A DNA stretch of 35,384 nucleotides from NCBI GenBank assembly GCA_964434475.1, contig CAYSVS010000008.1:1-35384 (forward strand), in the 5' to 3' direction. The notes beneath the pieces were generated by a model. The model saw only the letters and a program-made list of their open reading frames with translations. It had not been told where the DNA came from and did no database searches. Shown piece after piece: positions 6,628 to 28,045 of the stretch. Source of the stretch: an uncultured Methanosarcinales archaeon (GTDB lineage Archaea; Nanobdellota; Nanobdellia; Woesearchaeales; CAYSVS01). The first letter of the stretch is position 1. Each line of letters starts with the position of its first letter. The position numbers were made by a program, and so were the translations under genes.

Positions 6628-6796
6628 AAAGATATATAATGTCAACAGTTCATAACCACCAACCAATACACGAAAAAACATTAAAATATTTTTTGTGTTC
6701 TAAAAACCCATTATTTATATGAGACCAGTAGTATTAAAAGTATAAAAATAGCTCAAGCTATCTAATTAATGTAACAATAATGCAATATTATAATAT

Positions 6797-7054: not shown

Positions 7055-7115
7055 ACTTTTGCTGAAATTAATGCTTATTTAAATAAGTTATTGTTTTAAG
7101 CATCAAAATATATGT

Positions 7116-7400
7116 TATACCATTCGGTATATAAATATTAAAAAGTTATTTTATTCGGAATTTATACCCTTCGGCATTATTATTTATTCTAAATTACTGT
7201 TTAAAATCGAAACATTTATATATTTTCTAATTAATACCTTTCGGTATAAATACCTAATAAACAGAAATAATAGTGCCTTGAGATATGACCTACCCCCAAA
7301 TTTCAAGGCATTTTTTATTTTTTTCTGTTATTGTTTTTCGCCGAAAAATAGCAAGATTTATATAATATTATACCCATTAAGTAATATACCGATTGGTATT
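7116..7400. promoter_or_regulatory. Four palindromic operator-like sites WATACC-N4-GGYATW plus two TATA boxes
   Basis: TATACCattcGGTATA 7116-7131, TATACCcttcGGCATT 7163-7178, AATACCtttcGGTATA 7233-7248, TATACCgattGGTATT 7385-7400. TTTATATA boxes at about 7215 and 7357. Confidence 0.75.
7245..7324 (+). ncRNA. Candidate small RNA or attenuator: hairpin with C-rich loop plus U-tract
   Basis: TATA at about 7215; stem AGTGCCTTGAGAT (7272-7284) / ATTTCAAGGCATT (7300-7312); loop ATGACCTACCCCCAA; T-run to 7324. Confidence 0.4.
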
Positions 7401-7415
7401 AAGAAGTGAAATAGT

Positions 7416-10258: not shown

Positions 10259-11518
10259 ATGGATCCAGAAGATATGATTAAGGAAATCGAAAGCTTAAAG
10301 CAAAAGTTTGCTAAAAGAAACGAGTTAGCTCAAAAGCTGAAGGAGGACGTATATTACTATTCAACAAGGAGAGGAAAGCTAGAGAAAGAGTTTATATCAA
10401 GCTTGGAACTGGCAAGGAACAAAGAATATTTTGACGGCAATCCTGGAAATTTCATAAACCAAACAATAGAAAAGATAAACTCAATAAATCCTGAAGCAAA
10501 GATAAAACACAAGATAATCAAGAAACTGGAGAAATTCAAGTCAGAGCTGCCTAATGAACACGAGATACATTATATAGATACAATAATCAATGAATTAAAG
10601 GGGTTTAAGCCAGGAAGTGTTGCGATAGATGATTTCAGTCAAAAGATAAAGGATTACATAAAGCATTTAAGAGAAGAAGGAGATAAGGAAACAGCATTGA
10701 AGCTGATAAAAGCGAAGTTTGCAAGAAGAATAAGGTTCTATAGGATAGAAGAAAGGATACTCAGAAAAATTATAGAAAGTATAGAAAATGATAATTCTGA
10801 CTGGACATACTTCAGAGAAAAATTCTATGGAGACATAAAAAAGATAGCGCACAGGTTCGAGACAAAATATGGAGATACAAGCTTCAAAAAAGAGATATTA
10901 GAAGAAAGAAAAAAAGTCCACGAAGACAGGAACATATGGCTGGAATTCCTTAAGCAAAAACTCAATGATATGGAAAGCATGAAAGATCTGGCCAAAGAAG
11001 AGCAAGGAGCTATAGAGGAATTAGTAAATATATTATCATCCAGATTAATACAGCTTAAAAGCAAAAGAGAAGATATAAGAAAAGATTGCGAAAAAGAACT
11101 GTATTCAGAATACAAAGACATCAAGGAAAAGAGAGACAAGACAATAAAGGAATTTGAAAGGATAGTTAAAAGGCAAACAGAATTATTAGAAGGCTATGGA
11201 GCTTTGGTTAATGAGGTTTACACATTAAAGGATAAAGCTACAGAAGACATAAACAAACTAAAAAGATATTACAGGTGGCAGGATGATTCATTAAACTGGC
11301 ACAACAGCTTATCAGATAATGACAAAAAAAGATGGAAGCCAAGGATAGAACAGATGAAAGAATATATGAAAAGGACATTAAATGAGGAACAGGATATATA
11401 CAAAAACCTGAAGAACATAGTAGATGACGCAGATGTAACAGGAAAACTGATAGGAAAAAAATTAAAGCTGCTGAACAATAGCTTTGATGAATTCAATAAA
11501 CTGAAAAAAGCTGCGTAA
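10259..11518 (+). CDS. Hypothetical helical/coiled-coil protein ending KKAA
   Basis: 419-aa K/E-rich ORF starting directly after the previous stop; SD-like GGAGG upstream. Confidence 0.8.
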   Translation: MDPEDMIKEIESLKQKFAKRNELAQKLKEDVYYYSTRRGKLEKEFISSLELARNKEYFDGNPGNFINQTIEKINSINPEAKIKHKIIKKLEKFKSELPNEHEIHYIDTIINELKGFKPGSVAIDDFSQKIKDYIKHLREEGDKETALKLIKAKFARRIRFYRIEERILRKIIESIENDNSDWTYFREKFYGDIKKIAHRFETKYGDTSFKKEILEERKKVHEDRNIWLEFLKQKLNDMESMKDLAKEEQGAIEELVNILSSRLIQLKSKREDIRKDCEKELYSEYKDIKEKRDKTIKEFERIVKRQTELLEGYGALVNEVYTLKDKATEDINKLKRYYRWQDDSLNWHNSLSDNDKKRWKPRIEQMKEYMKRTLNEEQDIYKNLKNIVDDADVTGKLIGKKLKLLNNSFDEFNKLKKAA

Positions 11519-11549
11519 AGTTTATATAAAGAATATAGTATAGATTAAA

Positions 11550-12998
11550 ATGGTACAAAAAAAGATGGTGAACACAAGAAACAAGAAACTGATAGTATTA
11601 GTATTGTTAACTTTAGTTCTTGTTACTGCAGTAAGCGCTGCACCTACATATGTATTGAAAAGCAGAAGCCTTGTTGGAAATGTATTCAATAACGCAGGAA
11701 GCCTATTAATCAACAACCAAAGCAGTGCATTTGTTAAGCTATTAGACTTTTTCATATTCTTTGCTATATTTGCATCTGTTGCAATGATAGGATTAAAGAA
11801 CTGGGGAGGAGATAAAGTAAAAGGTCCTAGAAACATGATTGCAATTGCATTCGGCTTAGCATTATCAGTTGCATTAGTATGGGGAACAAACATTAGCGTT
11901 GCAACATTGTTTCCGTTTGCATCGTTTTTTTTGGTGATTGTACTCTACATATTTTTCTTTAAACTATTTGCAAATTTAGGAATGACAAGCACATTCTGGA
12001 AATTGCTGCTGGCTTTAGTGTTGACTATATTTACGATATACTTTTTTATAGGTTTTGATGAACTTGATCTTCCTGATAAGTTTGGAAAATCCATAGATAT
12101 TTTTCAAGGCAAAGGCGCAGATATTACAATAACAACAGAAAAAGAAGCAGAGAAGATTACAGAGGGGAAAAAAGGGGAAGAAGAGGTAAAAGGTGAACAA
12201 TACAGACAATTTTTACATAATATAGAATGCGAGGGAGTACCAGTAGGAAAATATATTCTTGAACTTGCAAAGGATAAAGAAGTACCGCACCCTTGTATAA
12301 TATATGGATTGATGATGGCTGAAAGCAACTGCAAAATAGATGACACATCCAGCTCAGGCTACTCTGGATTGATGGCGATTCCAGGAAGTATGTATAGCGG
12401 GTTGAGAGACAACTATAAGGGACAGATTGAAGCAGGATGGAATATATTGTTATCAAAAGACAGAACATTGCAAAGCATTGCAGGATATACAGAAACAGAA
12501 GATAGATGGAAATTTGCGGTTGCAGGATACAACATAGGACAAGCGCCAGTAAAAGATGTTCTTAAGAGATTAGATAAATTAACTTGGGAAAATTTTGTCA
12601 AATCCATAAGGACAACAGATCTTGATAAATATGATATATATAAAGATGAGAATATAGTTAATTCAGGCTTCTATAAATCCAAAAAATTCAGCTCAGGAGA
12701 AGAATACAGACAATATAAGATAAGAGATGAAATGATTAAACATCATCAAAGAACATTTAATTATGCCCACAAATGTTTTAGTGGAATAGAAGCAGGAGAA
12801 AGCATAACGCCACCTGTTGTTAAAGAAAAGGAAAAAGAGGAAGCTAAAACAGAGATTGAAGAAACTAAACTTACAAAAGAACAGCTTGAAGCTAACTTAC
12901 ATAAACATTGCAATAATATAAAAGGCAATTATACAGAATGGACATTTTCACAATGGCTAGGATGCGGAAGGTTGTTGAACAACGCAATAAAAGAATGA
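11550..12998 (+). CDS. Membrane-anchored lytic transglycosylase (SLT/GH23-like) protein: signal peptide, 4 TM, SLT domain
   Basis: YGLMMAES (catalytic-position E258), SSSGYSGLMAI (GLMQ-like), QIEAGWNIL and AVAGYNIG (AYNxG) occur in SLT order and spacing. The start may be 11565. Confidence 0.8.
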   Translation: MVQKKMVNTRNKKLIVLVLLTLVLVTAVSAAPTYVLKSRSLVGNVFNNAGSLLINNQSSAFVKLLDFFIFFAIFASVAMIGLKNWGGDKVKGPRNMIAIAFGLALSVALVWGTNISVATLFPFASFFLVIVLYIFFFKLFANLGMTSTFWKLLLALVLTIFTIYFFIGFDELDLPDKFGKSIDIFQGKGADITITTEKEAEKITEGKKGEEEVKGEQYRQFLHNIECEGVPVGKYILELAKDKEVPHPCIIYGLMMAESNCKIDDTSSSGYSGLMAIPGSMYSGLRDNYKGQIEAGWNILLSKDRTLQSIAGYTETEDRWKFAVAGYNIGQAPVKDVLKRLDKLTWENFVKSIRTTDLDKYDIYKDENIVNSGFYKSKKFSSGEEYRQYKIRDEMIKHHQRTFNYAHKCFSGIEAGESITPPVVKEKEKEEAKTEIEETKLTKEQLEANLHKHCNNIKGNYTEWTFSQWLGCGRLLNNAIKE

Positions 12999-14764
12999 GA
13001 AACTCAAACATATTTGGAATTAGCATAATGATTTTCATACTTATATCCATATTTGTTACAGCGCAAGAAGACATGATATTGACAAGAGATCATGCTACAA
13101 AAAGAGCTATATTGCTTGCAGATGAAGGAGAACTTGATCTTGTCCAGTTCTTTGTAGAGGAGCATGTGAATCAGAAAGAATCGAAAGAAGAAATGCTGCA
13201 ATTGATAGAGGATAGAAGAGCAGGCATAATAAAAGAAGAAATAGAAGAAGAAGAAGAATCAGGAGAGCCTGCTTATGGAGCATCTGCAGGAATAGGTCTT
13301 GCTTTAGCATTATTGTTATTGTTTGCATCAAGAAAAAAATTGAAAGAATGGTCGCAAACATCAAAAGATCCTCAACCAGTATCAAAACCAGAACAAAAAG
13401 AAGAACTAAATTATGAAAAGATAAATGACCTGATGAAAGAAAAAGAAAGATTATACAGAAGAAAACAGGCAAGGATTAAGAGATGGCGGCTTCTTAATGA
13501 AAAGCTAGAAGATATAGACAAAGAGCTTAAAGAAGAATTTAAAAACGCAAAACCGGATTTTCCGTTGAAAGGACTTGACAATGTTTATAGATGTGATAAA
13601 GAGAAGTTTGCAAAACATTATAATTATTTTAAAAAAGAATTAGACAATGTGATGGCTAAAGTCAACCTTAATGCCAACAAGCTTATAGAGATAAAAAAAG
13701 AAAAGAATAGGGAAAAAGCAGGCAAGATGCCTCATGGAGTCAAGATAATACTTGACAAGTCTAAGGAGATAGAAATCATCAATAAAAAGATTGAAAATTA
13801 TCTTTCGAGGAACTTTAAGTTTGATAAAGAGAACATAGAATGGGTTAAAGCGAATGCAGAAAAGATAAAAGAGAAGTATAATGATATAAATACTGATAAC
13901 AGTATAGACGAAGCTGTAAGAATAGGTCTGATTTCAAGAGAAAATTATGATAAACTTGACGAGGAACTTAAAACAATTTATGAGCAAAATAGCAATTTTG
14001 TTGCATATTTCAACAAGATACATAAGAACAATATTAAATTGTTCGAGCTTTTGAGAAAAGAGAATTCTTTGTTTGAGAAAGAAAGAAGTACAGAAAACAA
14101 AGAGATAATTAAATCTAAAAATCTTGATAAAGAATTTACTAACCAAATAAATATATTTAATGAGGAAAAAAAATACCTAGATCTATTCTTAAAAGATATT
14201 AAAGTACATATTGAAGAGCATGAAAAAAAACAGAAAGAAGAAATAAAGGAAGAGAAAAAAGACGAAGAAAAGGTTGAAGAAGCAAAAAAAGAAGTAGAAA
14301 AAGAAAAGAAAAAAGAAAAGAAAAAAAACAAAAGCATATTTGAACAAAAAATTAAAGTTCTTGAACACGCTGAAAAATATTTAAGAGTTCAGTTGAAATC
14401 CTTAGAGAAAAAAAGAACATTTAGAAAACTACTATGGGCAGCAGACAGCAATAATCCTGCGCATTATGTGCACATCAAATTTGAGATTCCATATTCTGAA
14501 AAGTTCAAGGAAAATTTAGTTAAAAACAAACCACAGTATCTATCTCAAAACATAGGGGAATTATATCATACACAAAGAGACAGTCCAGGAAAGTTTACAG
14601 GATTAAATTTTAAACAAAATATAGAAAGAGTAATAATTTCATTCAAACATTACATAAAAATAATAAACAATGAGATACAGTCAATAAGACAAGATGAAAA
14701 AGATTACATGAGCAGAAGTTACAATGCAGAGTCACAATCAAAATACAACATTTTAGGAAAATGA
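12995..14764 (+). CDS. Signal-peptide, single-TM protein with long coiled-coil region
   Basis: Probable start at the ATGA overlap (12995, MRNSNIFGISIMIFILISIFVTAQ); TM GIGLALALLLLFA followed by SRKK; about 480 aa K/E-rich. Confidence 0.78.
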   Translation: MRNSNIFGISIMIFILISIFVTAQEDMILTRDHATKRAILLADEGELDLVQFFVEEHVNQKESKEEMLQLIEDRRAGIIKEEIEEEEESGEPAYGASAGIGLALALLLLFASRKKLKEWSQTSKDPQPVSKPEQKEELNYEKINDLMKEKERLYRRKQARIKRWRLLNEKLEDIDKELKEEFKNAKPDFPLKGLDNVYRCDKEKFAKHYNYFKKELDNVMAKVNLNANKLIEIKKEKNREKAGKMPHGVKIILDKSKEIEIINKKIENYLSRNFKFDKENIEWVKANAEKIKEKYNDINTDNSIDEAVRIGLISRENYDKLDEELKTIYEQNSNFVAYFNKIHKNNIKLFELLRKENSLFEKERSTENKEIIKSKNLDKEFTNQINIFNEEKKYLDLFLKDIKVHIEEHEKKQKEEIKEEKKDEEKVEEAKKEVEKEKKKEKKKNKSIFEQKIKVLEHAEKYLRVQLKSLEKKRTFRKLLWAADSNNPAHYVHIKFEIPYSEKFKENLVKNKPQYLSQNIGELYHTQRDSPGKFTGLNFKQNIERVIISFKHYIKIINNEIQSIRQDEKDYMSRSYNAESQSKYNILGK

Positions 14765-14775
14765 GGTGCTAACAA

Positions 14776-15720
14776 ATGAGAATAAATGAATTTATATCAA
14801 GGATGGTAAGATCAAAATCAAAGATATTAGCGAACTTTGGCCAGAAATGGGCGTCAAAAAGTGTTTCGCGAAATCTAAGAGATTTTGAAGAGGAATTTAG
14901 CCAATTGGTGCATGATATAAAAGAAAGGAATCTTGAGAAAGAAATAGAAGAATTCAATCAACTGATACATAAACTTATTGATTCTGTTAAAGACACACAT
15001 ATAGTGTTTGATGATGCAACTGTACAAACAGAAGCATTGTTCAAGGAAGTTATGAGTTTTCTTTATTCTGACTTCAGGAAACTGCATAAAGTGAAGACAT
15101 TGTCAAAAGAAGAGATAAAAAAGATTTCTGAAGAATGGAAAAAACTTCATAGACAGACCATCAGTGAAATACACAGCAAACACAAAGATGAATACAATTC
15201 TATGTTAAGATTGATCAACTCAGCTAAAGAAGGCGGCAAAAGTCTTATGGAACAATGGACAGACTTCAGCAAGACACAGCAAGGAGGATTGCTGAGCTAT
15301 CTTTTTATGAGGCATGAATTTAAGGCAGAGATGTCTGCAATATACAGCGCAAAACTTTTCAAAAGTGATGTAAAAAAAGCTATAACCAAATTAAACTCAA
15401 GCAGGGATGAAAAGGAAAAAGAAAGATGGAAAAAACAGATAATGACAGGAGTGAAAGGATTTTATCAGAAAGTGCAGGAAGGGGTTGACAAGGCTCATCA
15501 TGTTGTCAAAAGAGAAGTGCTATATCTTTTTGCGATACTAGACCATGCGCAGAGATTATTAAATCTTGAACGTAAGCTGCAGGCTGCTCAAGAATTGCCA
15601 AGCCAAACAGCAGAAAGGATAGAAAAAACTTTAAATGATATAATCGAAAAAGTAAGGGAACTTGGAAAGACTGAAGCAGACGTAACAACAAGAGCAGACA
15701 GGATGCTCAAGGCTGCTTAA
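14776..15720 (+). CDS. Hypothetical helical protein ending LKAA
   Basis: 314-aa amphipathic helical ORF; GAGGTG SD upstream. Confidence 0.8.
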   Translation: MRINEFISRMVRSKSKILANFGQKWASKSVSRNLRDFEEEFSQLVHDIKERNLEKEIEEFNQLIHKLIDSVKDTHIVFDDATVQTEALFKEVMSFLYSDFRKLHKVKTLSKEEIKKISEEWKKLHRQTISEIHSKHKDEYNSMLRLINSAKEGGKSLMEQWTDFSKTQQGGLLSYLFMRHEFKAEMSAIYSAKLFKSDVKKAITKLNSSRDEKEKERWKKQIMTGVKGFYQKVQEGVDKAHHVVKREVLYLFAILDHAQRLLNLERKLQAAQELPSQTAERIEKTLNDIIEKVRELGKTEADVTTRADRMLKAA

Positions 15721-15737
15721 AAAAGAGGTGAATAAAG

Positions 15738-16127
15738 ATGATAGAAGCAAAAGACATAATAAGTTTTGTCATAGGCGCAATATTGTTTGGATTAGGATTG
15801 CTGCCCGTGTTAAAGATTATAGGAATAGGACCCAGTTGGTTTGCATTAAGCTTTTTGTCGGTGCAGATATTTGCATACATTGTAGCGATTGCAGGCTTTT
15901 ACTTGATAATTGAAAGCTTTATAGAGATAACCAACAGCAACGCGATAGGATGGTGGAGTTTTTTGATTGCATCATTGCTTATGGCAGTAGGCATCTTACA
16001 GGTATTATCTGGATTTAATATAGGTCCAAGCTGGTTTAATTTCAACATACCGGTACTAGCATACTATGCTATATTTATGATAGAAGGATTATTCCTGATG
16101 ATAGCGATGTTTGCTATGGAAATCTAA
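15738..16127 (+). CDS. Small 4-TM membrane protein with internal duplication
   Basis: Hydrophobic 129-aa ORF with IGPSWF twice; GAGGTGA SD upstream. Confidence 0.82.
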   Translation: MIEAKDIISFVIGAILFGLGLLPVLKIIGIGPSWFALSFLSVQIFAYIVAIAGFYLIIESFIEITNSNAIGWWSFLIASLLMAVGILQVLSGFNIGPSWFNFNIPVLAYYAIFMIEGLFLMIAMFAMEI

Positions 16128-16131
16128 AAAG

Positions 16132-16974
16132 ATGAGACTATACAGATGGAGACCAACGAGAGACAGTACATTGTGTGCTAGGCTGATCAACCAAACAGGT
16201 TACCTGTTTTCTCTTTTTGAAAGTGTAAAAACAGATTTGGAGAGATTGAAAGAGATTAAGATAAATAAAGACCAGAAAAAATATCTGTCCAAGAAGTACA
16301 TCATATTATTGAGAAAACTCAAGACAGATATTGTTCTTTCAATACTTAACCTAAGGAACATAATAATAGATGCAGAAACAATCTTTTACAGAGAATTCAA
16401 GGATATAAAGCCTATAGAAAAAGACCTGAAAAAAAGACTGAAAAGTATAGAATCAAAGATAGACAAGCAATACACAGAGCAAAAAAAAGAGAATAAAGCA
16501 GAGCTGTACAAAAGATATTTGAAAGACATACATGAATTAAAAGAGACTTTCAAAGAAGAGATCAGAGGGGCTGCAGAAGGAGCAGAAACATTAGAAACTG
16601 GCACAACTAATATACACAAGCTTCAAGAAATATCTTTAAGAAATACTAGAACAGTGCTCAAGAAAATAAAAAGATATGCCATAGAGGTTTTTCAGCTGAA
16701 CAAGAAAGCAAAATATAACATAAATGACATGAAAGTGATATATCAGCTTCATAAAGAGGAAGAAGATCTTATAGAAATAATTGAATATGGTTATGTACTT
16801 CTACACAGGATAAAGAAAGATATAAACAGCATACATTTTCCTGATATGGAACAAAGCTATGTAAGACAGGCTCAAAGGGAAATAAAAAAAATAAACAATT
16901 ATCTTGACAAAAATATTGAAAAGATAACAACAAGCTCAAGAAAAGAACTGCATGAACTGCAAAGAGCAGCATAA
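16132..16974 (+). CDS. Hypothetical helical protein ending QRAA
   Basis: ATG 4 nt after the previous stop; K/E/I-rich helical sequence. Confidence 0.78.
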   Translation: MRLYRWRPTRDSTLCARLINQTGYLFSLFESVKTDLERLKEIKINKDQKKYLSKKYIILLRKLKTDIVLSILNLRNIIIDAETIFYREFKDIKPIEKDLKKRLKSIESKIDKQYTEQKKENKAELYKRYLKDIHELKETFKEEIRGAAEGAETLETGTTNIHKLQEISLRNTRTVLKKIKRYAIEVFQLNKKAKYNINDMKVIYQLHKEEEDLIEIIEYGYVLLHRIKKDINSIHFPDMEQSYVRQAQREIKKINNYLDKNIEKITTSSRKELHELQRAA

Positions 16975-18624: not shown

Positions 18625-18844
18625 CTCACTTTTGGTTTTTTCAAAAGTGAGACTTAAATTTATTTTCAATATAGTAATAAATATAATAAAAAAGGCATTT
18701 ACAAAAATGCATTATATAACATAGAGCATCTAACGCATATATTGTAAACCACACTAAATCTTGAATTTTTTTGTCAAATATCAAAGGTTTTTACGCCTAA
18801 AAAATGCTGTTTTTGATTAAAAATAACAAAAAGTGAGACTTAAA
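18625..18844. repeat. Inverted and direct repeats of AAAAGTGAG(ACTTAAA)
   Basis: CTCACTTTTG-N7-CAAAAGTGAG at 18625-18651; identical 16-mer AAAAGTGAGACTTAAA at 18643 and 18829. Confidence 0.8.
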
Positions 18845-18889
18845 GACATATGCATAAGATTTATAAGATAACCTTTTTGTTAAAGAGAT

Positions 18890-19690
18890 ATGATAGATAA
18901 GATTAATGATTATCTCGACGATGAATTGAAAAACATAGATTTTCATGTTGAAGCATGCCTTAATAAGATAGACTACATTATAGAAACAGATAGGAAAATG
19001 ATCGATTCTGAAGAAAACAAAGACAATCTAAACAGGCTTTTCAAATATTTTGATTCGCAATATAAGTTTACATGTTCGAATCTAATCTCTATAATAGACA
19101 AGGAAGAGGAGTTCTTTAGCGATTATATCTCAAAAGACATAAGTTCAGATGAGATTCTAAAGGATATAAAGATATGCTATGAAAAAGCTTGGGAAATAGT
19201 AGAACAACTTAATTCTAACGAGAACAGAAAAGATGAACTAAATAATAAAAAACAAAAATTTTTATCCATATTAATAGAAAAAGATAAAGAAAAATTCAAA
19301 GAGTACAAAAAAGGTTTTTACAATAAATTTTGTGAAGATACAAGGAACTTGACAACAGCATATTTTATATCAAAATTAACATTTGATCTTGTTAAAAAAG
19401 CTTCAAAAGAATATCCTGATACAATATACTTCAAGGAACATTCATTCAATGAAGCTGTAAAATCCTATATTTTATATCATTTTGATATGCTGGATGAAGC
19501 AAAAGCAGCATACGACCAAGCACACCAATATGGGATTTTTGGTCATTATAATTATGATCTAAAAAAAGCAGAAGCTTCTGGACATAAAGAATCATACAAC
19601 GACACAGTTAAATTCATCGGGCTAATGAACAAGCTAGCAAAAAAGCTAAACAAGCCTCAAATAAAGGATAATCCCGACAATATCTACTAA
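18890..19690 (+). CDS. Hypothetical helical protein
   Basis: 266-aa ORF with a TATA-like TTTATAAG about 30 nt upstream; no recognised motif. Confidence 0.7.
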   Translation: MIDKINDYLDDELKNIDFHVEACLNKIDYIIETDRKMIDSEENKDNLNRLFKYFDSQYKFTCSNLISIIDKEEEFFSDYISKDISSDEILKDIKICYEKAWEIVEQLNSNENRKDELNNKKQKFLSILIEKDKEKFKEYKKGFYNKFCEDTRNLTTAYFISKLTFDLVKKASKEYPDTIYFKEHSFNEAVKSYILYHFDMLDEAKAAYDQAHQYGIFGHYNYDLKKAEASGHKESYNDTVKFIGLMNKLAKKLNKPQIKDNPDNIY

Positions 19691-20151
19691 CTACCTAAAA
19701 CACCATACTTTAGAAACATTTCTGGCCATGAACCCCACTTGTTGGATCAAAGGATAGTTAACTATCTAGTCGGAATAATTCCCTAAAAACAGGAGTTTGT
19801 CTATACAGGCAATATGATTATCCCAGAAATAGGTGGTTTGTTGCCAATATTTTATTCTGTATTAATTCCGACAAAATAGTTTGATTAAAACTTATTATCA
19901 AATACTTTATTTCAAGACATAAAATACATTCATAAACAAAAATCTTTAAAAAATAAGGCTTATTTTGGCTCAGAAGCATATTTTGAAACTGAAAAGTGAG
20001 AGTTTAGACAATATTAAATAATGCGATTAAAATATTTAATCAAATATAAAACGTTTTATTCTATACAATATTTAATCAACGCTTAAAACCTTTAGTTGTC
20101 GTCGGGAAAACAGGAGAAAAGTATAAATACTAGTATGTGCAAAATAATAGT

Positions 20152-20610
20152 ATGAAGATAGAACTATGGCATATGAACCCAGGAATAAGTCCAAATAAAC
20201 ACGAATTAGCAAAAGTTATCTTAGCAAGATTTGGTTTAATTCCCAGAAAAAAAGACGCAATTGCACAATTCTACAAACTTATCCTTGAACTGTATGAAAG
20301 AAAGAAGATTGCTATAAAGGAAAAGAAGCCAGAAAAATCTATAATGACAGTAGAGGATATGGCATTATTCGCAAATATAAAACGCCAGACAATGTATGAC
20401 TACCTAAAAAGATGGTTAGTACTACAAATAATCAAAAAGACATCATTCTCAGATAGAGGAAAGATAATACAAGGATATGAGCTTAACGGCAATAATCTAG
20501 AGACAGCATTTTCAAGAGCTCAAGCAATTATCACAAACCATACAGAAACGTCTATGGAATACATACAGGATCTGCAGAAAGAAATTAAGAATGAAAAATT
20601 AAGATCTTGA
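20152..20610 (+). CDS. HTH-type DNA-binding protein
   Basis: MTVEDMALFANIKRQTMYDYLKRW helix-turn-helix followed by a wing. Probable leaderless start at 20152 after TATAAATA at about 20122. Confidence 0.75.
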   Translation: MKIELWHMNPGISPNKHELAKVILARFGLIPRKKDAIAQFYKLILELYERKKIAIKEKKPEKSIMTVEDMALFANIKRQTMYDYLKRWLVLQIIKKTSFSDRGKIIQGYELNGNNLETAFSRAQAIITNHTETSMEYIQDLQKEIKNEKLRS

Positions 20611-21153
20611 AAATACTTGTTTCATCAATTCTTCGTCTATATTAAGTATGTTTTTCTTTGCCTGAAATTCCTTGAATTTTGTATCAAGTCTTAAGAATGG
20701 TCTGCCCATCTTGTATTCTTTTATTACAGGGATACCTTTCTCTATAAGATTTGTAACATACTGCCTTACTAAAGATTCTGTAAGATTAATAGAAGAAGCT
20801 ATGTTTGCATATCTCAATAATTTGTTATCATCAGCTGCATAAAGAACAAGGAAAACCTCTTTTTCCTTTATGCTTAATGGTTGAATCTGATAATCCTCTT
20901 CAATGTTAGGCACAAAACTATCATTGTTTGTCAATTGCCTAAGAAAAAGCTGTATCTGATCCAATCTTTGCGCTAATTTCTCTAGTTTATTGTCGAGCTG
21001 ACAAAGATATTCATAATTGCCCATTATCTCGTTAGTATTATCATTTATAGATTCAAGATGCTGATGAAATTGATCCTTTATATCCTTAAGATTAGAATTA
21101 AGCTCTTCTTTCAGTTTAGCATTCTCCCTATTGCCAAATATATTGAAGACCAT
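20599..21153 (-). CDS. Coiled-coil plus winged-HTH DNA-binding protein
   Basis: N-terminal heptads, then LSIKEKEVFLVLY...YANIASSINLTESLVRQYVTNLIEKGIPVIK. Confidence 0.8.
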   Translation of the reverse strand: MVFNIFGNRENAKLKEELNSNLKDIKDQFHQHLESINDNTNEIMGNYEYLCQLDNKLEKLAQRLDQIQLFLRQLTNNDSFVPNIEEDYQIQPLSIKEKEVFLVLYAADDNKLLRYANIASSINLTESLVRQYVTNLIEKGIPVIKEYKMGRPFLRLDTKFKEFQAKKNILNIDEELMKQVFSRS

Positions 21154-21235
21154 ATGAAAAACAGAACTTAAGCTTGTTTAAATATCTATCGATTTTCAAA
21201 AAATATTTAAATAGAGCATACTTCTTAATACAAGG

Positions 21236-21943
21236 ATGTTGGGAATTTTTAATAATAACAGATTCAAAAGAGTACATAGAGTTATATCTTATATAGACGA
21301 TAGAACCAAAAACATATTAGAATGGATTAAATTCTTTAATCACAGACACGAAGAACACGATAAAAGACTAGATATTATAGAGCAAAAGCTCACTTTAATA
21401 CCTTCTGAACAAGATATTAAGAGTTTGATAGATATGCACTATCTTAATCATGATGTAAGAAACAGACTTAACATACTACACGGAAGGATAGAGAATATGT
21501 CTATAGTACACCAACATGTACCAGAAAGGATAAGATATTTACATGAAAAGATAAAAAGAATAGAGCAAAAACACTCACTTTTGCTTGAAAAACATGAAAT
21601 TTTAAAAGATATGCATAAAGAATTAGCCAAAAAACCCGCAGAAAAACCAACAATAAAAGACATTAAAACAGAGCAAAAGTCTCACTTCAAGGAAAAACTG
21701 ATAGTAAATCTTGCAAAAAACAGCAAAAATTATGTTAAAGGAACAATAGTTAATCTGATCAAAAAATATGAAAAAATGAATGGTGCAAAAATCAAAGAGA
21801 TAATTGTTGATGAACAAAAGCTATGCTCTAAAAGTTCACTTTATAGAATACTATCTGAAATAGAACAAGAATACCCCTTAAATGTAGCCAGAAAAGGCAA
21901 AGACAAAATGTTTTCTTTCGGCAAAATTTTCGCAGAAAATTAG
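21236..21943 (+). CDS. Coiled-coil protein with C-terminal winged-HTH-like domain
   Basis: Heptad-rich N-terminal half; KIKEIIVDEQKLCSKSSLYRILSEIE pattern; divergent from the previous gene. Confidence 0.72.
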   Translation: MLGIFNNNRFKRVHRVISYIDDRTKNILEWIKFFNHRHEEHDKRLDIIEQKLTLIPSEQDIKSLIDMHYLNHDVRNRLNILHGRIENMSIVHQHVPERIRYLHEKIKRIEQKHSLLLEKHEILKDMHKELAKKPAEKPTIKDIKTEQKSHFKEKLIVNLAKNSKNYVKGTIVNLIKKYEKMNGAKIKEIIVDEQKLCSKSSLYRILSEIEQEYPLNVARKGKDKMFSFGKIFAEN

Positions 21944-21988
21944 TCTATTTTTACAACTAAAAATTGTTAGCAAATACTAAATAAAGCG

Positions 21989-22172
21989 ATAGTCCCAAGC
22001 ACGTTTTGGGACAGTCCCAGGACTATTCTGGGACTATCCCAGGACTATTCTGGGACTATTTTAACAACCAAAAAAACAATAATATAGACGACAAGACACA
22101 TAGTCCCATAGTCCCAAGCTAGGACCATCCCAGGACTATTCTGGGACTATCCCAGGACTATTCTGGGACTAA
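21989..22172. repeat. Two iteron-like arrays of 5 x 11-bp RGGACTATYCY units, each preceded by an inverted copy
   Basis: Array 1 at 22008-22062, array 2 at 22121-22172; alternating GGGACTATCCC and AGGACTATTCT; ATAGTCCCAAGC at 21989 and 22108. Confidence 0.92.
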
Positions 22173-22344
22173 GAAAAATATCTGCAATAAAACAAAAAAA
22201 AAGAAAAATACCAAAAAAGCAAAGACAAAATAAGCCTAAAAAAACACAAAAAGAGTTACATTAAAATAAGATCAAAACATTACAAAAAATTAGCTTAAGT
22301 TCATACACAAAAACAATAAACAAGTACAAAAGTGACACACCAAA

Positions 22345-22983
22345 ATGGCAAAAAAACTGACAAAATCAAGACTAGGCATCATTTTATCACAGCTAAAAGG
22401 CTTTGAACAGCCAAAAGTGAGGGTTGAACAATACATAACAGAGCCAGAAATAGCTGCAGAAATACTATGGAATGCATATATGTTAGGAGATATAGAGGGT
22501 AAAGCGATAATAGATGCAGGCTGCGGCACAGGAATATTAGGAATAGGCGCATTAATATTGGGCGCAAGCAAGGTTTATTTCATAGATATAGATAAAAGTG
22601 CACTAAAAATACTTAAAGATAACATAAATAAAACAAAAAGTGAGCACAATATAGAAGATCAAAGCTATGAAATACATAATAAAGATATAAAAGAGACAGA
22701 AATAAAAGCAGACATTACAATTCAGAATCCGCCTTTCGGCATAAAAAACAAGCACGCAGACAAGATTTTCCTTGAAAAAGCTGTAAAAAACACAAAAACA
22801 ACATATTCATTCCATAAAAGTGAGAGCCAAGGCTTTGTTTCAGCATTCTGCAAAGACAATGATTGCATAATTGATGCAATCTGGATGTTTAATTTCCCTT
22901 TAAAACAAACATATTCTTTCCATAAGAAAAGAATACAGATGATAAATGTAAGTTGTTTCAAGATAGTACGACGCAAGACATAG
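22345..22983 (+). CDS. METTL5-family SAM-dependent methyltransferase
   Basis: EQYIT, DAGCGTGILG and QNPPFG motifs; TYSFHKK near the C-terminus. Confidence 0.93.
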   Translation: MAKKLTKSRLGIILSQLKGFEQPKVRVEQYITEPEIAAEILWNAYMLGDIEGKAIIDAGCGTGILGIGALILGASKVYFIDIDKSALKILKDNINKTKSEHNIEDQSYEIHNKDIKETEIKADITIQNPPFGIKNKHADKIFLEKAVKNTKTTYSFHKSESQGFVSAFCKDNDCIIDAIWMFNFPLKQTYSFHKKRIQMINVSCFKIVRRKT

Positions 22984-23043
22984 AAACATTTTTAAATAAA
23001 ACACAATTTCAAGCACTAGCAATCAACAATCAGGGGGAATAAA

Positions 23044-23310
23044 ATGGAGCTAAAAATAATAGAAGAAAGCAAAAATAAGCTATTGCTTGAGATAAAAGGC
23101 GAAAACAACACATTCTGCAACGCCCTTAAAGAAGAACTTTACAATAACAAAAAAGTTAAGACAGCAAGCTATAAGGTAAAGCATCCTTTGGTAGGCAAAA
23201 TCACCATGCTTGTAGAAACAACATCAGGAGAAGACCCTAAAAAAGCTCTTGCTGACGCTTCAAAAAAACTTAAGAAAAACGCAGACAAGTTCAAATCTTT
23301 AATAAAATGA
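23044..23310 (+). CDS. rpoL: DNA-directed RNA polymerase subunit L (Rpo11)
   Basis: GENNTFCNALKEEL and ASYKVKHPL motifs. Confidence 0.93.
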   Translation: MELKIIEESKNKLLLEIKGENNTFCNALKEELYNNKKVKTASYKVKHPLVGKITMLVETTSGEDPKKALADASKKLKKNADKFKSLIK

Positions 23311-23882
23311 ACATTGAACAAGGTAAAAAACTAATAGGTTTAGCAAAAAAAACCATACGTTCTGAGCTATCCAAAGAAGATTTGGATATCGAAAAAAACA
23401 TAAAAAAAGATTTTGATAAAAAACAAGGAGTCTTTGTCACCATAACAATAGATAAACAACTAAGAGGATGCATAGGAATCCCTTACCCTACAGAAAAGTT
23501 GTGGAAAAACTTGATCAGCTCAGCTAAATCTGCAGCTTTCAAAGATCCCAGATTTAGGCCATTGACAAAAGAAGAGTTTGAAAATATTGAAATAGAGGTT
23601 TCTGTTCTTACAGAACCTAAGCGAATAAGCCCCATAAACAATAAAAATTTGAAAGAAAAGATCAAAATAGGTAAAGACGGCCTTATAATAAAAAAAGGTT
23701 TGAATTCAGGCTTATTGCTGCCTCAAGTTGCAACAGAGCAAAGATGGGATGCAAAAACATTTATCGAACAAACATGCACAAAAGCAGGATTAGATATCGA
23801 CGAATGGAAAGATTCTGAAATTTATACATTTCAAGCAGATATATTCAGCGAAAAAAAAGGCAACATCATAAAGAAAGGATAA
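23307..23882 (+). CDS. AMMECR1 family protein
   Basis: GVFVT, LRGCIG, AAFKDPRF, EVSVLT and GLLLPQVA motifs. Confidence 0.95.
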   Translation: MNIEQGKKLIGLAKKTIRSELSKEDLDIEKNIKKDFDKKQGVFVTITIDKQLRGCIGIPYPTEKLWKNLISSAKSAAFKDPRFRPLTKEEFENIEIEVSVLTEPKRISPINNKNLKEKIKIGKDGLIIKKGLNSGLLLPQVATEQRWDAKTFIEQTCTKAGLDIDEWKDSEIYTFQADIFSEKKGNIIKKG

Positions 23883-23884
23883 AA

Positions 23885-24583
23885 ATGCCATTACCAAAAC
23901 ACATAGGAATAATCATGGATGGAAACAGAAGGTTTGCTAAAAGACTAATGTTAAAACCATGGAAAGGCCACGAATGGGGAGCCACAAAAGTTGAAAAGAT
24001 AATAGAATGGTGCATAGAAAAGAAGGTCAAGGAATTAACCCTATACACGCTTTCTGTAGAAAACTTCAATTCAAGGCCTAAAGAAGAGCTCGAATACCTT
24101 ATGAAAATATTCAAAGAAAATTTTGCAAAACTCAGGGAAGATAAACAAGTTAATGAAAAAGGCATAAAGGTTAATTTCATAGGAAGACTGCATATGTTCG
24201 ATAATGAACTGCAAGGATTGATGAAAGATCTTATGGAAAATACAAAACATAATTCCAGTTTTACTGTTAACTTTGCTGTAGCTTATGGAGGAAGAACCGA
24301 GGTTGTAGACGCAGTAATAAAGATTGCAAAGCAGGTAAAAGAAGGCAAACTAAACATCGATCAGATCAATGAAGATGTATTTGCAGACAACCTCTATATT
24401 CCTAATGATTTAGATTTCATAATAAGGACAGGAGGAAACATAAGGACAAGCAACTTCCTGCCTTATCAAAGCGCTTATTCTGAATGGTTCTTTATAGATA
24501 AAATGTTTCCTGAATTTGAAAAAGAAGATTTCATCAGATGCTATGAGCAGTTCTCAAACAGAAAAAGAAGATTTGGGAAGTAA
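23885..24583 (+). CDS. uppS: cis-Prenyltransferase (undecaprenyl diphosphate synthase family)
   Basis: HIGIIMDGNRR, SVEN, YGGR, IIRTGG, RTSNFL and RRFGK motifs. Confidence 0.96.
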   Translation: MPLPKHIGIIMDGNRRFAKRLMLKPWKGHEWGATKVEKIIEWCIEKKVKELTLYTLSVENFNSRPKEELEYLMKIFKENFAKLREDKQVNEKGIKVNFIGRLHMFDNELQGLMKDLMENTKHNSSFTVNFAVAYGGRTEVVDAVIKIAKQVKEGKLNIDQINEDVFADNLYIPNDLDFIIRTGGNIRTSNFLPYQSAYSEWFFIDKMFPEFEKEDFIRCYEQFSNRKRRFGK

Positions 24584-24585
24584 AG

Positions 24586-25089
24586 TCATTTGCATAAATA
24601 AAAATAAGGTATTTCTATTTCAAGCAATTTTGCCATATTATATGTCCTTTCTTTTGAAAACTTCTCTTTAAAAAAGTCCAAAGCAGAAGAAGGATCATAA
24701 CCCGCCAATCTTGCTAAAACTACACCTAAAACATCAGCTTCAGATTCATTTTTTTCATAATTATCCGCAGTATCTATACTTAGATTATCTATCAACTTTT
24801 GATCTTTATTTGACAATTGTGACGTAGAGACCACATAATGAAAATATTCATGCCCTATTATGAAAGAGATAATACCTTCCTTTGAGCCTTTACTTTTCTC
24901 AATCGCAGATATAAGAGAAGTCTTAAAATAAAATGCATCTTTCCAAGCTTCTGCTAATCCTTTTACAGGATAAGGATAATCAGTCTCAGAATATATCGCA
25001 TAATCACTTATAACTACACCAAATCTAGGTTTATCTATGTCCAGAATATCTGAAATATTTTTATATGCTTTGTTAAGTTCCTGTTCCAT
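24586..25089 (-). CDS. M48-like zinc metallopeptidase
   Basis: FIIGHEYFH (HExxH) followed by ESEADVLG...AGYDPSSA. Confidence 0.75.
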   Translation of the reverse strand: MEQELNKAYKNISDILDIDKPRFGVVISDYAIYSETDYPYPVKGLAEAWKDAFYFKTSLISAIEKSKGSKEGIISFIIGHEYFHYVVSTSQLSNKDQKLIDNLSIDTADNYEKNESEADVLGVVLARLAGYDPSSALDFFKEKFSKERTYNMAKLLEIEIPYFYLCK

Positions 25090-26156
25090 TAATAATCCCT
25101 CCTCAAAATATAATCTGCAATTCCTATAAGGAATTCTTTAGCTTCTTGGTTAGCTTCAAGCTCTTTCAGATTCTTGTTTGCTTTCTCTATCAATTCTTTT
25201 GCAATATTCAAAGAATATTCTTTTGAACCTGTTATCTCTATTATTTTCTTGAAATCTTCTATATCCTGGACAGTTATATTTTTGTTACCAATACAATAGT
25301 CCAATCTTTTCTTCTGCTCTTCATCAGCAGCTTCATAGGCCTTTAATGTCAATAATGTCTTTTTACCTTCTGTTATGTCTGAACCTATAGGTTTACCTAG
25401 ATTTTTCTCATCTCCAAAAACACCAAGAATATCGTCCTGTATCTGGAACGCTTGTCCCAAAGGGACAGAGTATCTTGACAAGGTTTCGATATCATCCTTA
25501 GATGCTCCAGCAAGCAATGCACCTATGACCAAAGGTGCTTCGATAGTATATCTAGATGTTTTCAGTTTATGTATCTTAAAAACTGTCTCAACTTTAGTAT
25601 CGTCATTTACCTCACTTAAAACATCAAGAGCCTGGCCGTTTATAACATCCATTATAAGCCTGTTCATATGCTTTATTGCAGCTAGTTTATATCTATCTTC
25701 TAGATTGATATCTGCAAGTATCTCATTAGCCATATGGCAGCAGATGTCTCCTGCTATTATCGCCATAGAAGCACCAAAATGTTCTTTGTTATCTTTTAGA
25801 TTTTCTTCTGTATGGTAAGCTTCATACATCTTATGCATTGTCGGCTTTCCCCTTCTTAAGCTGTCCCTATCCATTATATCATCATGTATAAGAAGATAGC
25901 TCTGGATAAGCTCGATACACATAGAAGCTTTTATCACTTGGTCTAATTTGTTATCTTTAAACAACCTATAGCCATAATAGATCAAAGCAGCACGTATCCT
26001 TTTGCCGCCTCTTAATGTGTATTCTTTGATTAATTCCAACATCTCTTTTGCAGAACTGTCAACAAGTTCAGCTTTCTCAAGCTCTTGATTGAAATAATCT
26101 TCAAGACTCTTGTCAACTAATTCCTTGTATTCTTTTAATAGCAGTATAGCACTCAT
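25089..26156 (-). CDS. idsA: Short-chain trans-polyprenyl diphosphate synthase (GGPP/FPP synthase)
   Basis: GGKRIR, YLLIHDDIMD (aromatic residue at -5), RRGKPT, GQALD, KT and FQIQDDILG motifs. Probable start 26156 (ATGA overlap). Confidence 0.93.
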   Translation of the reverse strand: MSAILLLKEYKELVDKSLEDYFNQELEKAELVDSSAKEMLELIKEYTLRGGKRIRAALIYYGYRLFKDNKLDQVIKASMCIELIQSYLLIHDDIMDRDSLRRGKPTMHKMYEAYHTEENLKDNKEHFGASMAIIAGDICCHMANEILADINLEDRYKLAAIKHMNRLIMDVINGQALDVLSEVNDDTKVETVFKIHKLKTSRYTIEAPLVIGALLAGASKDDIETLSRYSVPLGQAFQIQDDILGVFGDEKNLGKPIGSDITEGKKTLLTLKAYEAADEEQKKRLDYCIGNKNITVQDIEDFKKIIEITGSKEYSLNIAKELIEKANKNLKELEANQEAKEFLIGIADYILRRDY

Positions 26157-26965
26157 TTTAGGATGTATAACAAAGAAAAGATTATAAATGTTATGGAGCA
26201 TATGTTGAAAATTATCCTTAGCATCTTTTTTGTCGGATTGATTGAACTTATAGAGAAAAGTATCGCATTCATAGAAAGAAAATACAACACATAGATGTTC
26301 TTTATTCCAGAGAAGAATATTGTTATGAATTGAGTCAATATGGCATAATATATCGCAGTTCTTTTACCTATTATAACAGCAAATGTTTTCATGTTTGCTT
26401 TCTTGTCTGCTTCATAATCCAATGCTGTTGTGAAAGCATGTATGCCTGTTATCGCAAAAAGGATGTAATAAATTATGATAGGAATAGTCCTTTGAGAAAA
26501 ACTTGCCGCCAATAGTATAACTGAAAAAACTATAAACGCATTTGTTATAGAGTCTAAGATAGGTTTTTCCTTTAGCCTTAAAGGAGGGACTGAGTATGAG
26601 TAGGATAAAAATATAAATAAAGACATAGCTAAGATATTGTTCAGATTAAATGTAATAAAGCTCGAAAACAATAGCAATACTAACATTAAATAGGATAATT
26701 TTTTTATTCTTCTGAAATCGTTTTTGCTTACTATGGCACCTTCTATATTTCCTTTTCTTGAATTTATCTCATCACTTTTGTAATCGTAGATATCATTTAT
26801 TCCATAAATAAAAAAACAGAGAGGAAAGGTTAATACTAGTATTTGGATGATAATCTGAAGCGTGTAATCTATACCTATTAATTTCATATAAGCGATGTAT
26901 ATCAAAGGAGCAAACAACCAACCTATGGGTCTGCTTATCCTTATAGCTTTTCTTAGGTTCATCAA
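26153..26965 (-). CDS. UbiA-family prenyltransferase (CrtEb/LyeJ-like pattern)
   Basis: SRPIGW, YGINDIYDYKSD, YSVPPLRLKEKP and DYEADKKANMKT motifs; multi-TM. Confidence 0.88.
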   Translation of the reverse strand: MMNLRKAIRISRPIGWLFAPLIYIAYMKLIGIDYTLQIIIQILVLTFPLCFFIYGINDIYDYKSDEINSRKGNIEGAIVSKNDFRRIKKLSYLMLVLLLFSSFITFNLNNILAMSLFIFLSYSYSVPPLRLKEKPILDSITNAFIVFSVILLAASFSQRTIPIIIYYILFAITGIHAFTTALDYEADKKANMKTFAVIIGKRTAIYYAILTQFITIFFSGIKNIYVLYFLSMNAILFSISSINPTKKMLRIIFNICSITFIIFSLLYILK

Positions 26966-27024
26966 ATCCAGGATTAAAGAAGATTTTAAAAATATTTTTA
27001 TAGTATAAGATCAAAATAAGATAT

Positions 27025-27660
27025 ATGGACAAGTTGAATGAACAAAGTATAGAGGAAGAAAAATGGTACCAAGGACCTTTGAAATATATCATAGGAATAT
27101 TCTTGGTGTTTTTGATAACTTTGATGACTATACCATATTATGGGTTGAAGTTGAATCCAGAGCCTAACTATAATTTTGTTGAACTTGACTTCTATGACGA
27201 TAATTATACAAAGTTTGAAAGTATTCTTGATGTTCAAAATCTAGAGGTTTCACAAACAATACGTAACAATGCAGTCAAGATATCATCAGAGAGATGTCAA
27301 AGCTCAATAATATGTAATGCAAAAGCTTTATTCTATTTCGTAAGGGATGAGATAGACTACATACCTGATCCTAGTCGAGAATATGTACAGCACCCTATAG
27401 AAACTTTAAAATCTAGAGGGGGAGATTGCGAGGATAAGTCAATATTATTGGCAAATCTTTTGTCTGCAGTAGGGTTTAATACCAGATTTGCACTCACTTT
27501 TAACCATGCTTATGTACAAGTATGGATTCCAGATGCCATGGATAAATACAAAAGTGAGGATTCATGGATTTCATTGGATTCTGCTTGCGAATACTGCGAT
27601 TTTGGTGAAATTCCGCCAAAATACGTTAAAATGAGTAAAAATTATATTCATTTTAATTAA
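27025..27660 (+). CDS. Membrane-anchored transglutaminase-like (Cys-His-Asp) protein
   Basis: N-terminal TM; GGDCEDKSILL, NHAYVQV and WISLD motifs. Confidence 0.9.
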   Translation: MDKLNEQSIEEEKWYQGPLKYIIGIFLVFLITLMTIPYYGLKLNPEPNYNFVELDFYDDNYTKFESILDVQNLEVSQTIRNNAVKISSERCQSSIICNAKALFYFVRDEIDYIPDPSREYVQHPIETLKSRGGDCEDKSILLANLLSAVGFNTRFALTFNHAYVQVWIPDAMDKYKSEDSWISLDSACEYCDFGEIPPKYVKMSKNYIHFN

Positions 27661-28045
27661 GTATATATTTATTCTTGATTTACATACTTTTCTTCAGTTA
27701 GGCACTATTTAGAAAAGATATTAAAAAGTGAGAATTCAAGCAATATAAGACATGATAAAAGGTTTTAGGCGGTTTGAAAAGAAAGAAAAAACTTCTTTCC
27801 TAGTATATTCCATAGGCTTAATATCGAACCAAGATTAGAACCCCAAATACACAATTGTTCAATATTATTGTTGAACTAAATACATTAATGTTACTTTTAT
27901 ATCTAAATAGACATCTATAATATATTTGTCACAGTAATATAATATGATTTAGCACAAAATCCCGGGAAACCATAACCTTTATAAATAACCCCCTATTTCT
28001 GCTCATCATTCCCGTATTTACTATACGTTGTTATAGGAGGGCAAA

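Follow-up and report, generated by a model that had tools for sequence, protein, structure and literature searches.

The parC site of plasmid R1, which is bound by ParR, consists of two sets of five 11-bp repeats around a promoter, and in the tubC/TubR system of pBtoxis the adaptor TubR is a winged-helix protein. The parS site is a palindrome of ~16 bp and is read by ParB, a protein that has a helix-turn-helix (HTH) together with a ParB/Srx N-terminal domain, with the ATPase ParA alongside. The matS site is a 13-bp palindrome spread over the terminus macrodomain, i.e. over hundreds of kb, and its protein MatP joins a DNA-binding domain to a coiled coil. Polar replication terminators are represented by Tus-Ter of E. 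coli and RTP-Ter of B. subtilis, where RTP is a winged helix with a long C-terminal helix. Typical archaeal operators of MarR, Lrs14 and BlaI repressors have one or two palindromic sites. Here we describe an array of asymmetric sites built on the 9-mer AAAAGTGAG, which lies in and around three genes for predicted winged-helix proteins (u157, u184 and u235) on contig CAYSVS010000008.1 of an uncultured archaeon. The whole stretch of DNA that was analysed, 35,384 nucleotides, is called the window.

The local proteins have homologues that carry the labels Candidatus Woesearchaeota or Nanoarchaeia, and we assign the organism to the Woesearchaeota (DPANN). The DPANN archaea have tiny genomes and no pure cultures, and their gene regulation and chromosome handling are almost unexplored. 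Judging from sequence comparisons, the sites probably serve as docking sites of a DNA-binding protein that is encoded in their midst, with u235 as the most likely candidate and u157 as the second. Full-text literature searches (on the motif in archaea, on Woesearchaeota iterons and on DPANN origins and origin recognition boxes) turned up no description of such an element.

Enrichment of the motif in the window and in the genome

The initial annotation of this DNA had listed eleven exact copies of AAAAGTGAG between positions 18625 and 27732. A pattern search recovered each of them at its coordinate and on its strand (Table 1), and the word is absent from the rest of the window. Shuffled versions of the window that preserve the dinucleotide composition contained 0.77 copies on average and 3 at most (100 shuffles). 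The window is contig C8 of an assembly (G000) with 148 contigs, 1,500,564 bases and a GC content of 33%. This genome has 18 copies in total, 11 of them within 18625-27732 and the other 7 as singletons on seven other contigs, i.e. no other contig carries more than one copy. The density is ~1.2 per kb in these 9.1 kb and ~0.005 per kb elsewhere. Since only 18 copies exist in the 1.5-Mb genome, the 9-kb region is enriched ~250-fold. In an unbiased scan of 6- to 12-mers AAAAGTGAG was top-ranked for local excess (Poisson p ~6e-23). Variants with one mismatch are at background level, with 12 occurrences in the window and 431 in the genome.

Two near copies inside u235 had also been proposed, and both are present. 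The one at 21389(-) reads TAAAGTGAG and has 1 mismatch; the one at 21681(-), which is CTCACTTC on the plus strand, differs from the 9-mer at 2 positions and retains the 7-mer AAGTGAG. An additional copy with 1 mismatch, AAAAGTGAC at 22328(+), was found 17 nt ahead of the ATG of the methyltransferase gene that follows u235.

The copies inside genes are not accounted for by codon usage. In gene 21236 (u235) the CTCACTT word occurs three times, at gene offsets 153, 338 and 445, in three different reading frames as the initial annotation had stated. Each copy is preceded by AGAGCAAAA, which codes for Glu-Gln-Lys in one frame. The three host genes together contain 7 copies of the 8-mer AAAGTGAG, as against a mean of 0.54 after synonymous-codon shuffling, and none of 2000 such shuffles reached 7. 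The motif is thus neither evenly distributed over the genome nor a product of codon usage, because 11 of the 18 copies are local and the synonymous shuffles fall far below the observed number.

Conservation of the sites among related genomes

Two congeners, G001 and G002, have ~68-74% DNA identity to the window over the locus. The 8-mer AAAGTGAG occurs 12 times in the locus of the window (39 times in that genome), 13 times in the syntenic locus of G002 (48 in the genome) and 9 times in that of G001 (22 in the genome). The counts outside the locus are comparable to those of a reversed-motif control. In codon alignments, two 8-mers of the methyltransferase gene (offsets +69 and +292) and two of u235 (offsets 153 and 338) are invariant in all three species, while only 36% of the third-codon positions are invariant in the same alignments, and the flanking codons and even amino acids differ. 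The inverted pair at 18625/18643 is also found in G002 (locus L013, 5850(-)/5867(+)), and the 27550(+) copy is conserved there as well.

The motif extends well beyond the genus. Genes in the other genomes were assigned from our own open reading frame (ORF) calls and tblastn. Loci with u157 orthologues from other families (3.4 kb long, with ~0.1 copies expected per locus for a random 8-mer) contained the 8-mer in 25 of 28 cases and at least three copies in 20, at GC contents of 20-50%. Eighty loci with u184 orthologues (938 kb) held 355 copies of the 8-mer and 15 of the reversed word. For 28 further loci with u235 orthologues, a set without the locus of the window itself and without one from an unpublished genome, the numbers were 136 and 6, and 25 of the 28 had at least three copies. 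Taken over many families of the order, the motif loci span 20-58% GC while their flanks diverge. The u235 profile itself found 10 of 201 genomes of a class-wide sample at E <= 1e-15, all belonging to the window's own order; a wider count, in which 94 of 151 genomes match the profile, also takes in weak matches to coiled coils and two genomes that are unpublished. Some lineages retain the genes and have no AAAGTGAG, among them G030 and the loci L023, L028 and L032.

A position table of 53 sites gave the extended consensus aAAAGTGAG-[A/G]-[G/A]-T-T. This is an asymmetric site of ~12-13 bp. Matches to AAAGTGAGNNTT occur 12 times in the window's own genome, and 8 of these are inside the locus.

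Locus architecture and helical phasing

In most families the genes follow the same order: a PAC2-family gene, a spacer, u157 if it is present, u184 and u235 on the opposite strand, a second spacer and the methyltransferase gene. The spacer on the PAC2 side has 2-3 sites in one orientation. The spacer between u235 and the methyltransferase gene is 300-1400 bp long. The part of it next to u235 is occupied by TGGGA[AC]T iterons in two arrays, which were found in all 36 spacers that met the strand and length criteria among the 80 loci. The iterons are spaced by 11 bp (89 cases), 22 bp (31) or 33 bp (10), and 272 of them are on one strand versus 40 on the other. They occur only in the main loci that hold u235, and none were seen at relocated copies of this gene. 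The AAAGTGAG sites come next, in the direction of the methyltransferase gene, as head-to-tail arrays that continue into the coding sequence. The recurrent offsets relative to the methyltransferase gene are -13 to -25, +69, +153, +292, +396, +469 and +597.

The equivalent of the TGGGA[AC]T arrays in the window are GGACTA repeats, in which TGGGACTA alternates with CAGGACTA. Inverted copies lie ahead of each of these arrays, and the DNA is strongly A-rich from the GGACTA arrays to position 22345. Inspection by eye of the related spacers L117, L123, L124, L130 and L133 revealed conserved promoter-like boxes that flank the iteron arrays. Immediately ahead of the first array is a TATA box with a CGAAAA-type B recognition element (BRE), oriented towards u235; immediately ahead of the second is GACGAAAAG-TTTAAATATT, oriented towards the methyltransferase gene.

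The orientation of the sites differs between the two sides of the iterons. Counted outwards from the centre of the iterons (254 sites in 31 loci), 158 sense sites and no antisense site lay within 150-2000 bp on the methyltransferase side, as against 69 antisense and 16 sense sites on the other side. The spacing is also regular. Adjacent intergenic sites are 52-53, 61-64, 73-75, 83-86, 93-97 or 103-105 bp apart, and so on, i.e. at multiples of 10.5 bp (Rayleigh R 0.64, n=51). After removal of 7 loci with similar spacers the value was R 0.62 (n=47), which exceeds the largest of 5000 random sets.

The sites also leave their mark on the proteins. A comparison of 59 methyltransferase orthologues showed that the positions that bear a site read KV(R/S) or (K/E/Q)SE, and that nearly any residue occurs there when the site is absent. 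It is the DNA word that constrains the protein here, and not the protein that constrains the word. The earlier proposal of a constraint at the DNA level is borne out by these imposed amino acids, by the invariance of the sites in three species against the background of variable third-codon positions, and by the helical spacing.

The window's genus departs from the usual order in that u235 is inverted, which places the iterons downstream of its 3' end. The u235-internal sites run antisense to the gene, and the same antisense sites are seen in G015. The left-hand sites of the window, at 18643, 18829 and 19992, are in sense orientation. A further extension of the sites to a transglutaminase-like gene and to the region upstream of the ribosomal protein L1 gene (27493-27732) is specific to the genus.

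Co-occurrence of the sites with u235

The number of sites varies with the winged-helix genes that are present. Those u184 loci that also contain u235 (n=43) have a median of 8 copies of AAAGTGAG (range 1-13), and those with u157 only (n=7) have 1-5 copies per locus. Where neither u235 nor u157 is present (n=30), 24 loci have no copy, 4 have one and 2 have two. In other words, u184 alone is not accompanied by sites.

Five genomes with neither gene at the main locus were searched with the u235 profile, and 4 of the 5 were found to have a homologue elsewhere. Each of these four relocated homologues is flanked by 5-8 sites within 3.5 kb. Extra copies of u235 in G009 and G097 have 4 and 5 sites, respectively. 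A second cluster in G024 (L049, G024:C2:499000-514000, ~5744-8700) has 10 AAAGTGAG sites around a u235-like paralogue. The arrays thus travel with the u235 family, given that the relocated homologues are again bracketed by sites, and each genome has only one or two such loci.

We note two details of these relocated clusters. The alternative home of u235 (L175-L178, from G125-G128) has the conserved gene order NFACT_N, u235, an AAA_18 kinase-like gene, UPF0047 and an HTH_20 protein gene; the AAAGTGAG arrays lie on both sides of u235 and TGGGA[AC]T iterons are absent. The paralogue of G024 adjoins a gene for a fused PriS-PriL primase, and two of the sites are inside the primase coding sequence.

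The three winged-helix proteins

The site cluster encloses three unannotated genes, u157, u184 and u235 (Table 1). None of their products has a Pfam, NCBIfam, PHROGs or PADLOC family above noise. Searches of PDB sequences with the u157 and u184 sequences and with the u157 and u235 profiles gave only weak HTH and coiled-coil noise, and profile-profile comparison of u235 with u184 and u157 found no relationship. The gene for u157 is single-copy and was found in 38 of the 121 genomes sampled from the order.

The structure model of u157 (mean predicted local distance difference test, pLDDT, 89.3) consists of a winged helix with a single long helix behind it. The C-terminal part of u235 (residues 161-230, block pLDDT 83-93) is likewise modelled as a winged helix. 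The closest solved folds for both are the winged helices of MarR, Lrs14, BlaI and TFE-alpha, all at E > 0.001. Both proteins have a near-invariant putative recognition helix, SKSSxYR in u235 and RQTMYxY in u157. A complex prediction for two copies of u235 scored 0.31 against a mark of 0.42 and is not evidence either way. The homologues are all named 'hypothetical protein' with the exception of one JGI entry labelled 'DNA primase catalytic subunit', which we take to be an annotation slip.

Table 1. Motif sites, iterons and associated genes of the locus. Positions refer to the window; (+) and (-) denote the strand of individual sites.
Feature	Position	Strand	Remark
Inverted pair CTCACTTTT-N9-AAAAGTGAG	18625..18651	18625(-), 18643(+)	112 bp downstream of PAC2-family gene
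Site AAAAGTGAGACTT	18829..18837	+	61 bp upstream of ORF 18890-19690
Site AAAAGTGAGAGTT	19992..20000	+	In 447-bp spacer upstream of u157 gene
u157	20137..20610	+	Predicted winged helix and long C-terminal helix; without Pfam family
u184	20599..21153	-	Predicted coiled coil and C-terminal winged helix; in every related locus
u235	21236..21943	+	Predicted two long helices and C-terminal winged helix
Sites inside u235	21389, 21574, degenerate 21681	-	Antisense to u235
Iteron array 1, 11-bp-phased, GGACTA type (TGGGACTA / CAGGACTA)	21987..22069	+	
Iteron array 2, 11-bp-phased, GGACTA type	22100..22171	+	
Degenerate site AAAAGTGAC	22328..22336	+	Recurrent -13/-17/-25 class of other families
Small NPPF-motif methyltransferase	22345..22983	+	Followed by RpoL and AMMECR1
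Sense sites in methyltransferase gene	22413, 22636, 22816	+	8-mer gene offsets +69, +292, +472
Divergent site pair	27493..27558	27493(-), 27550(+)	Inside transglutaminase-like gene 27025-27660
Site AAAAGTGAGAATT	27724..27732	+	322 bp upstream of ribosomal protein L1 gene (28046)

Other features of the window

In addition to the genes in Table 1, the window codes for LonB, RpoL, the ribosomal proteins L1, L10 and L12 and the PAC2-family protein. The contig opens exactly at the 3' end of a minus-strand archaeal 16S rRNA gene (1-1504). This was the only gene found by tRNA and Rfam scans of the window. The GC content of the first 1 kb is 52% and that of the remainder ~33%, the contrast that rRNA is expected to show in an AT-rich genome. 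From 7416 to 16974 there is a run of eight co-directional ORFs, several of them large and most without families; the first gene encodes an archaeal ATPase of the ATPase_2 type, and one of the others gave a weak match to SLT transglycosylases.

An ORF of 266 residues without family (18890-19690) lies between the left-hand sites and u157. No counterpart turned up in the syntenic loci of the two congeners, which gives it the appearance of a recent insertion. The ribosomal protein L10/P0 ORF (28701-30254) is 517 residues long and its Pfam domains cover the first ~180 residues only. The DNA of the remaining part is strongly A-skewed (AT skew 0.46 at 29-30 kb), and this points to a long tail of low complexity.

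Possible functions of the sites

From the above data we infer who binds the sites, in what manner and with what output. We favour, at about even confidence, the reading that they are cognate, cooperatively bound sites of u235 and that they nucleate a regulatory complex on the DNA of its own locus. A winged-helix protein of the locus would recognise an asymmetric site of ~12-13 bp with AAAAGTGAG as its core. Proteins sitting on helically phased, head-to-tail sites would share one face of the DNA and, the spacings being whole helical turns, could bind cooperatively. In most families the arrays of opposed direction start beside a divergent promoter region with two iteron arrays, and arrays and protein may together form a nucleoprotein complex confined to the locus. 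Its output would be transcriptional, i.e. autoregulation of the winged-helix operon, and control of the transcription that leaves the block, which in the window would run into the methyltransferase-RpoL genes. A cooperative, sequence-specific binder is suggested by the exact word, the helical spacing, the head-to-tail arrays and the near-invariant recognition helix. Control of divergent transcription, which in our view is the most likely output, fits with the BRE/TATA-like boxes that face both ways and with the site class before the methyltransferase ATG, which recurs 13-25 nt ahead of the start codon in other families.

Several points weigh against this reading. The only constant target in the two neighbourhoods of u235 is the DNA around u235 itself, and a target restricted to the protein's own gene is more typical of centromere, origin and terminus systems than of ordinary regulators. 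The 8-13 sites run through several hundred bp of coding sequence, which is unusual for a simple operator. Sites are also found near u157 in G067 (4 sites) and G027 (2 sites), which have no profile-detectable u235 homologue, and there are many sites in G003, G011 and G020, which have no u157. Since the sites persist without the one or without the other, u235, u157 or a third protein could be the reader. In the window's genus the sites within u235 are antisense to the gene, yet their polarity with respect to the sides of the locus is kept; as these sites lie in an inverted gene, their orientation goes with the locus and not with the transcript. Moreover, the loci come from related species, so that the p-values overstate independence. 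Finally, the binder is a predicted one and the source organisms are uncultured.

The first of these points is the reason for keeping the view that the locus is a centromere-like partition site or a chromosome-organising site, either with a complex of the segrosome type or with a coiled coil that loops the two inverted arrays together. We consider this unlikely. It would account for the presence of one or two loci per genome without a dispersed regulon, for arrays that accompany the binder gene into two unrelated neighbourhoods, and for direct repeats phased at 10.5 and 11 bp with two iteron arrays in the promoter region. The long predicted coiled coil of u235 and the tolerance of sites inside genes agree with it as well. 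On the other hand, no NTPase of the ParA, ParM or TubZ type was found among the window ORFs that were scanned, nor among the scanned neighbours of the relocated copies, apart from the small AAA_18 kinase-like protein, and the locus proteins have no homology to known centromere-binding proteins. The initial annotation had gone further and proposed dispersed parS/matS-like sites around the HTH locus. The association with an HTH gene cluster holds, but membership of the parS/matS class does not: the site is asymmetric, the arrays are dense and head-to-tail within a few kb of the putative binder gene, and there is no protein of the ParB, MatP or ParA type among the window ORFs scanned. Somewhat broader is the idea that arrays and u235 form a previously unknown, Woesearchaeales-specific module of chromosome handling, whether as segrosome, loop anchor or polar barrier, and this we would call possible but doubtful.

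A link to replication is improbable in our opinion, both as an origin independent of Cdc6, with a winged-helix initiator and iterons, and as a polar fork trap. The sites form two groups of opposite polarity, the site itself is asymmetric, the binder gene is in the middle and the iterons are beside A-rich DNA; one relocated cluster (G024) adjoins the fused primase gene, and in G122, a complete chromosome, the locus is 48% of the circle away from cdc6. Yet if cdc6 is taken to mark the origin, the locus is 26% of the circle away from the best cdc6 in G027 and 25% in G018, both single-contig genomes. The GC and AT skews of G018, sampled in twenty 20-kb pieces, follow the gene strand only, with no replication-related pattern, and are uninformative. 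Tus and RTP are absent among the Foldseek matches listed, and dense, helically phased arrays are not a known feature of Ter sites. Cdc6 was not adjacent in the 10 genomes checked (in the window's own genome Cdc6_C is on contig C16), and an origin beside cdc6 was rejected on this ground. Still less probable is a signal at the RNA level, in which copies of AAAGUGAG carried by the u235 mRNA, and by the methyltransferase mRNA in its long leader and 5' half, would bind a protein or an RNA. All 158 sites on the methyltransferase side are sense, as are the u235-internal sites in most families, but a spacing rule of 10.5 bp has no rationale in RNA, the u235-internal sites are antisense in the window's genus and in G015, and there are antisense sites downstream of the PAC2 gene. 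A Shine-Dalgarno reading was rejected as well: the 16S rRNA of the window ends with the usual GGATCA... tail, and this anti-Shine-Dalgarno end is not complementary to the motif. That the words have no function at all, and result from chance, composition, codon usage or remnants of repeats and mobile elements, is refuted by the counts and we regard it as practically untenable. An A-rich motif in an AT-rich genome, with some copies in Lys/Glu-rich coding sequence, would speak for this view. Nevertheless, 11 copies stand against 0.77 in dinucleotide shuffles, with 18 in the whole genome; 7 stand against 0.54 in synonymous shuffles; the reversed-motif controls gave 15 versus 355 and 6 versus 136; and the motif is kept across families at 20-58% GC with diverged flanks.

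Whichever protein reads it, the locus offers three candidate binding proteins of uncharacterised families, a DNA word that is exact and deeply conserved (many families, 20-58% GC), and a clear architecture in which helically phased sites, a switch of polarity and two iteron arrays are combined. Such a protein-DNA system is approachable in vitro, with recombinant proteins and synthetic DNA, and does not depend on cultivation. Provided that the predicted binding is real, it is also an example of a binding-site array that overwrites the amino-acid sequence of housekeeping genes. If it were a chromosome-handling module, no cis element of this kind would have been defined in DPANN archaea before, and this one would have been recognised from sequence alone; it would stem from a protein family without known relatives; a centromere or barrier element would mean a new kind of chromosome-maintenance system for archaea.

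Comparison with known systems

Like Tus-Ter and RTP-Ter, the locus has asymmetric sites in two opposed groups, with the putative binder gene beside them and some sites inside genes, and the u157 model resembles RTP in that a winged helix is followed by one long helix. Unlike these terminators, it has dense, helically phased arrays, and its distance from cdc6 is inconsistent (25%, 26% and 48% of the circle). Like parS and matS it has a short exact word that gathers in one region of the chromosome and can lie inside genes. The predicted union of a DNA-binding domain with a coiled coil in u235 is reminiscent of MatP. However, the site is asymmetric, unlike both parS and matS, and the cluster spans 1-9 kb, unlike matS. 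Scans of the window ORFs against Pfam and NCBIfam found no ParB/Srx, ParB-type or MatP family, and the ORFs scanned in the window or beside the relocated u235 copies include no ParA/MinD-type protein.

The MarR, Lrs14 and BlaI repressors are the nearest solved folds of the locus proteins. In common with them, the sites lie just upstream of a start codon in many families and the winged-helix genes are probably autoregulated. The difference is in the scale, i.e. 8-13 asymmetric sites and 6-15 iterons that run through neighbouring genes, and no dispersed regulon.

With parC/ParR and tubC/TubR the locus shares direct, helically phased repeats, two 11-bp iteron arrays in the promoter region and sites that adjoin the gene of the candidate binder, itself predicted to have a winged-helix fold; autoregulation would be a likely by-product of such an arrangement. 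It differs from both in that no motor gene of the actin, tubulin or ParA type was found nearby among the ORFs scanned, and in that its proteins lack sequence homology to ParR and TubR. Unlike plasmid centromeres, it is chromosomal and vertically inherited, it has two different types of repeat, and its AAAGTGAG arrays span kilobases, enter coding sequence and oppose each other on the two sides. By analogy, the locus would work most like the phased-iteron centromeres parC/ParR and tubC/TubR or like winged-helix repressors with multiple operators.

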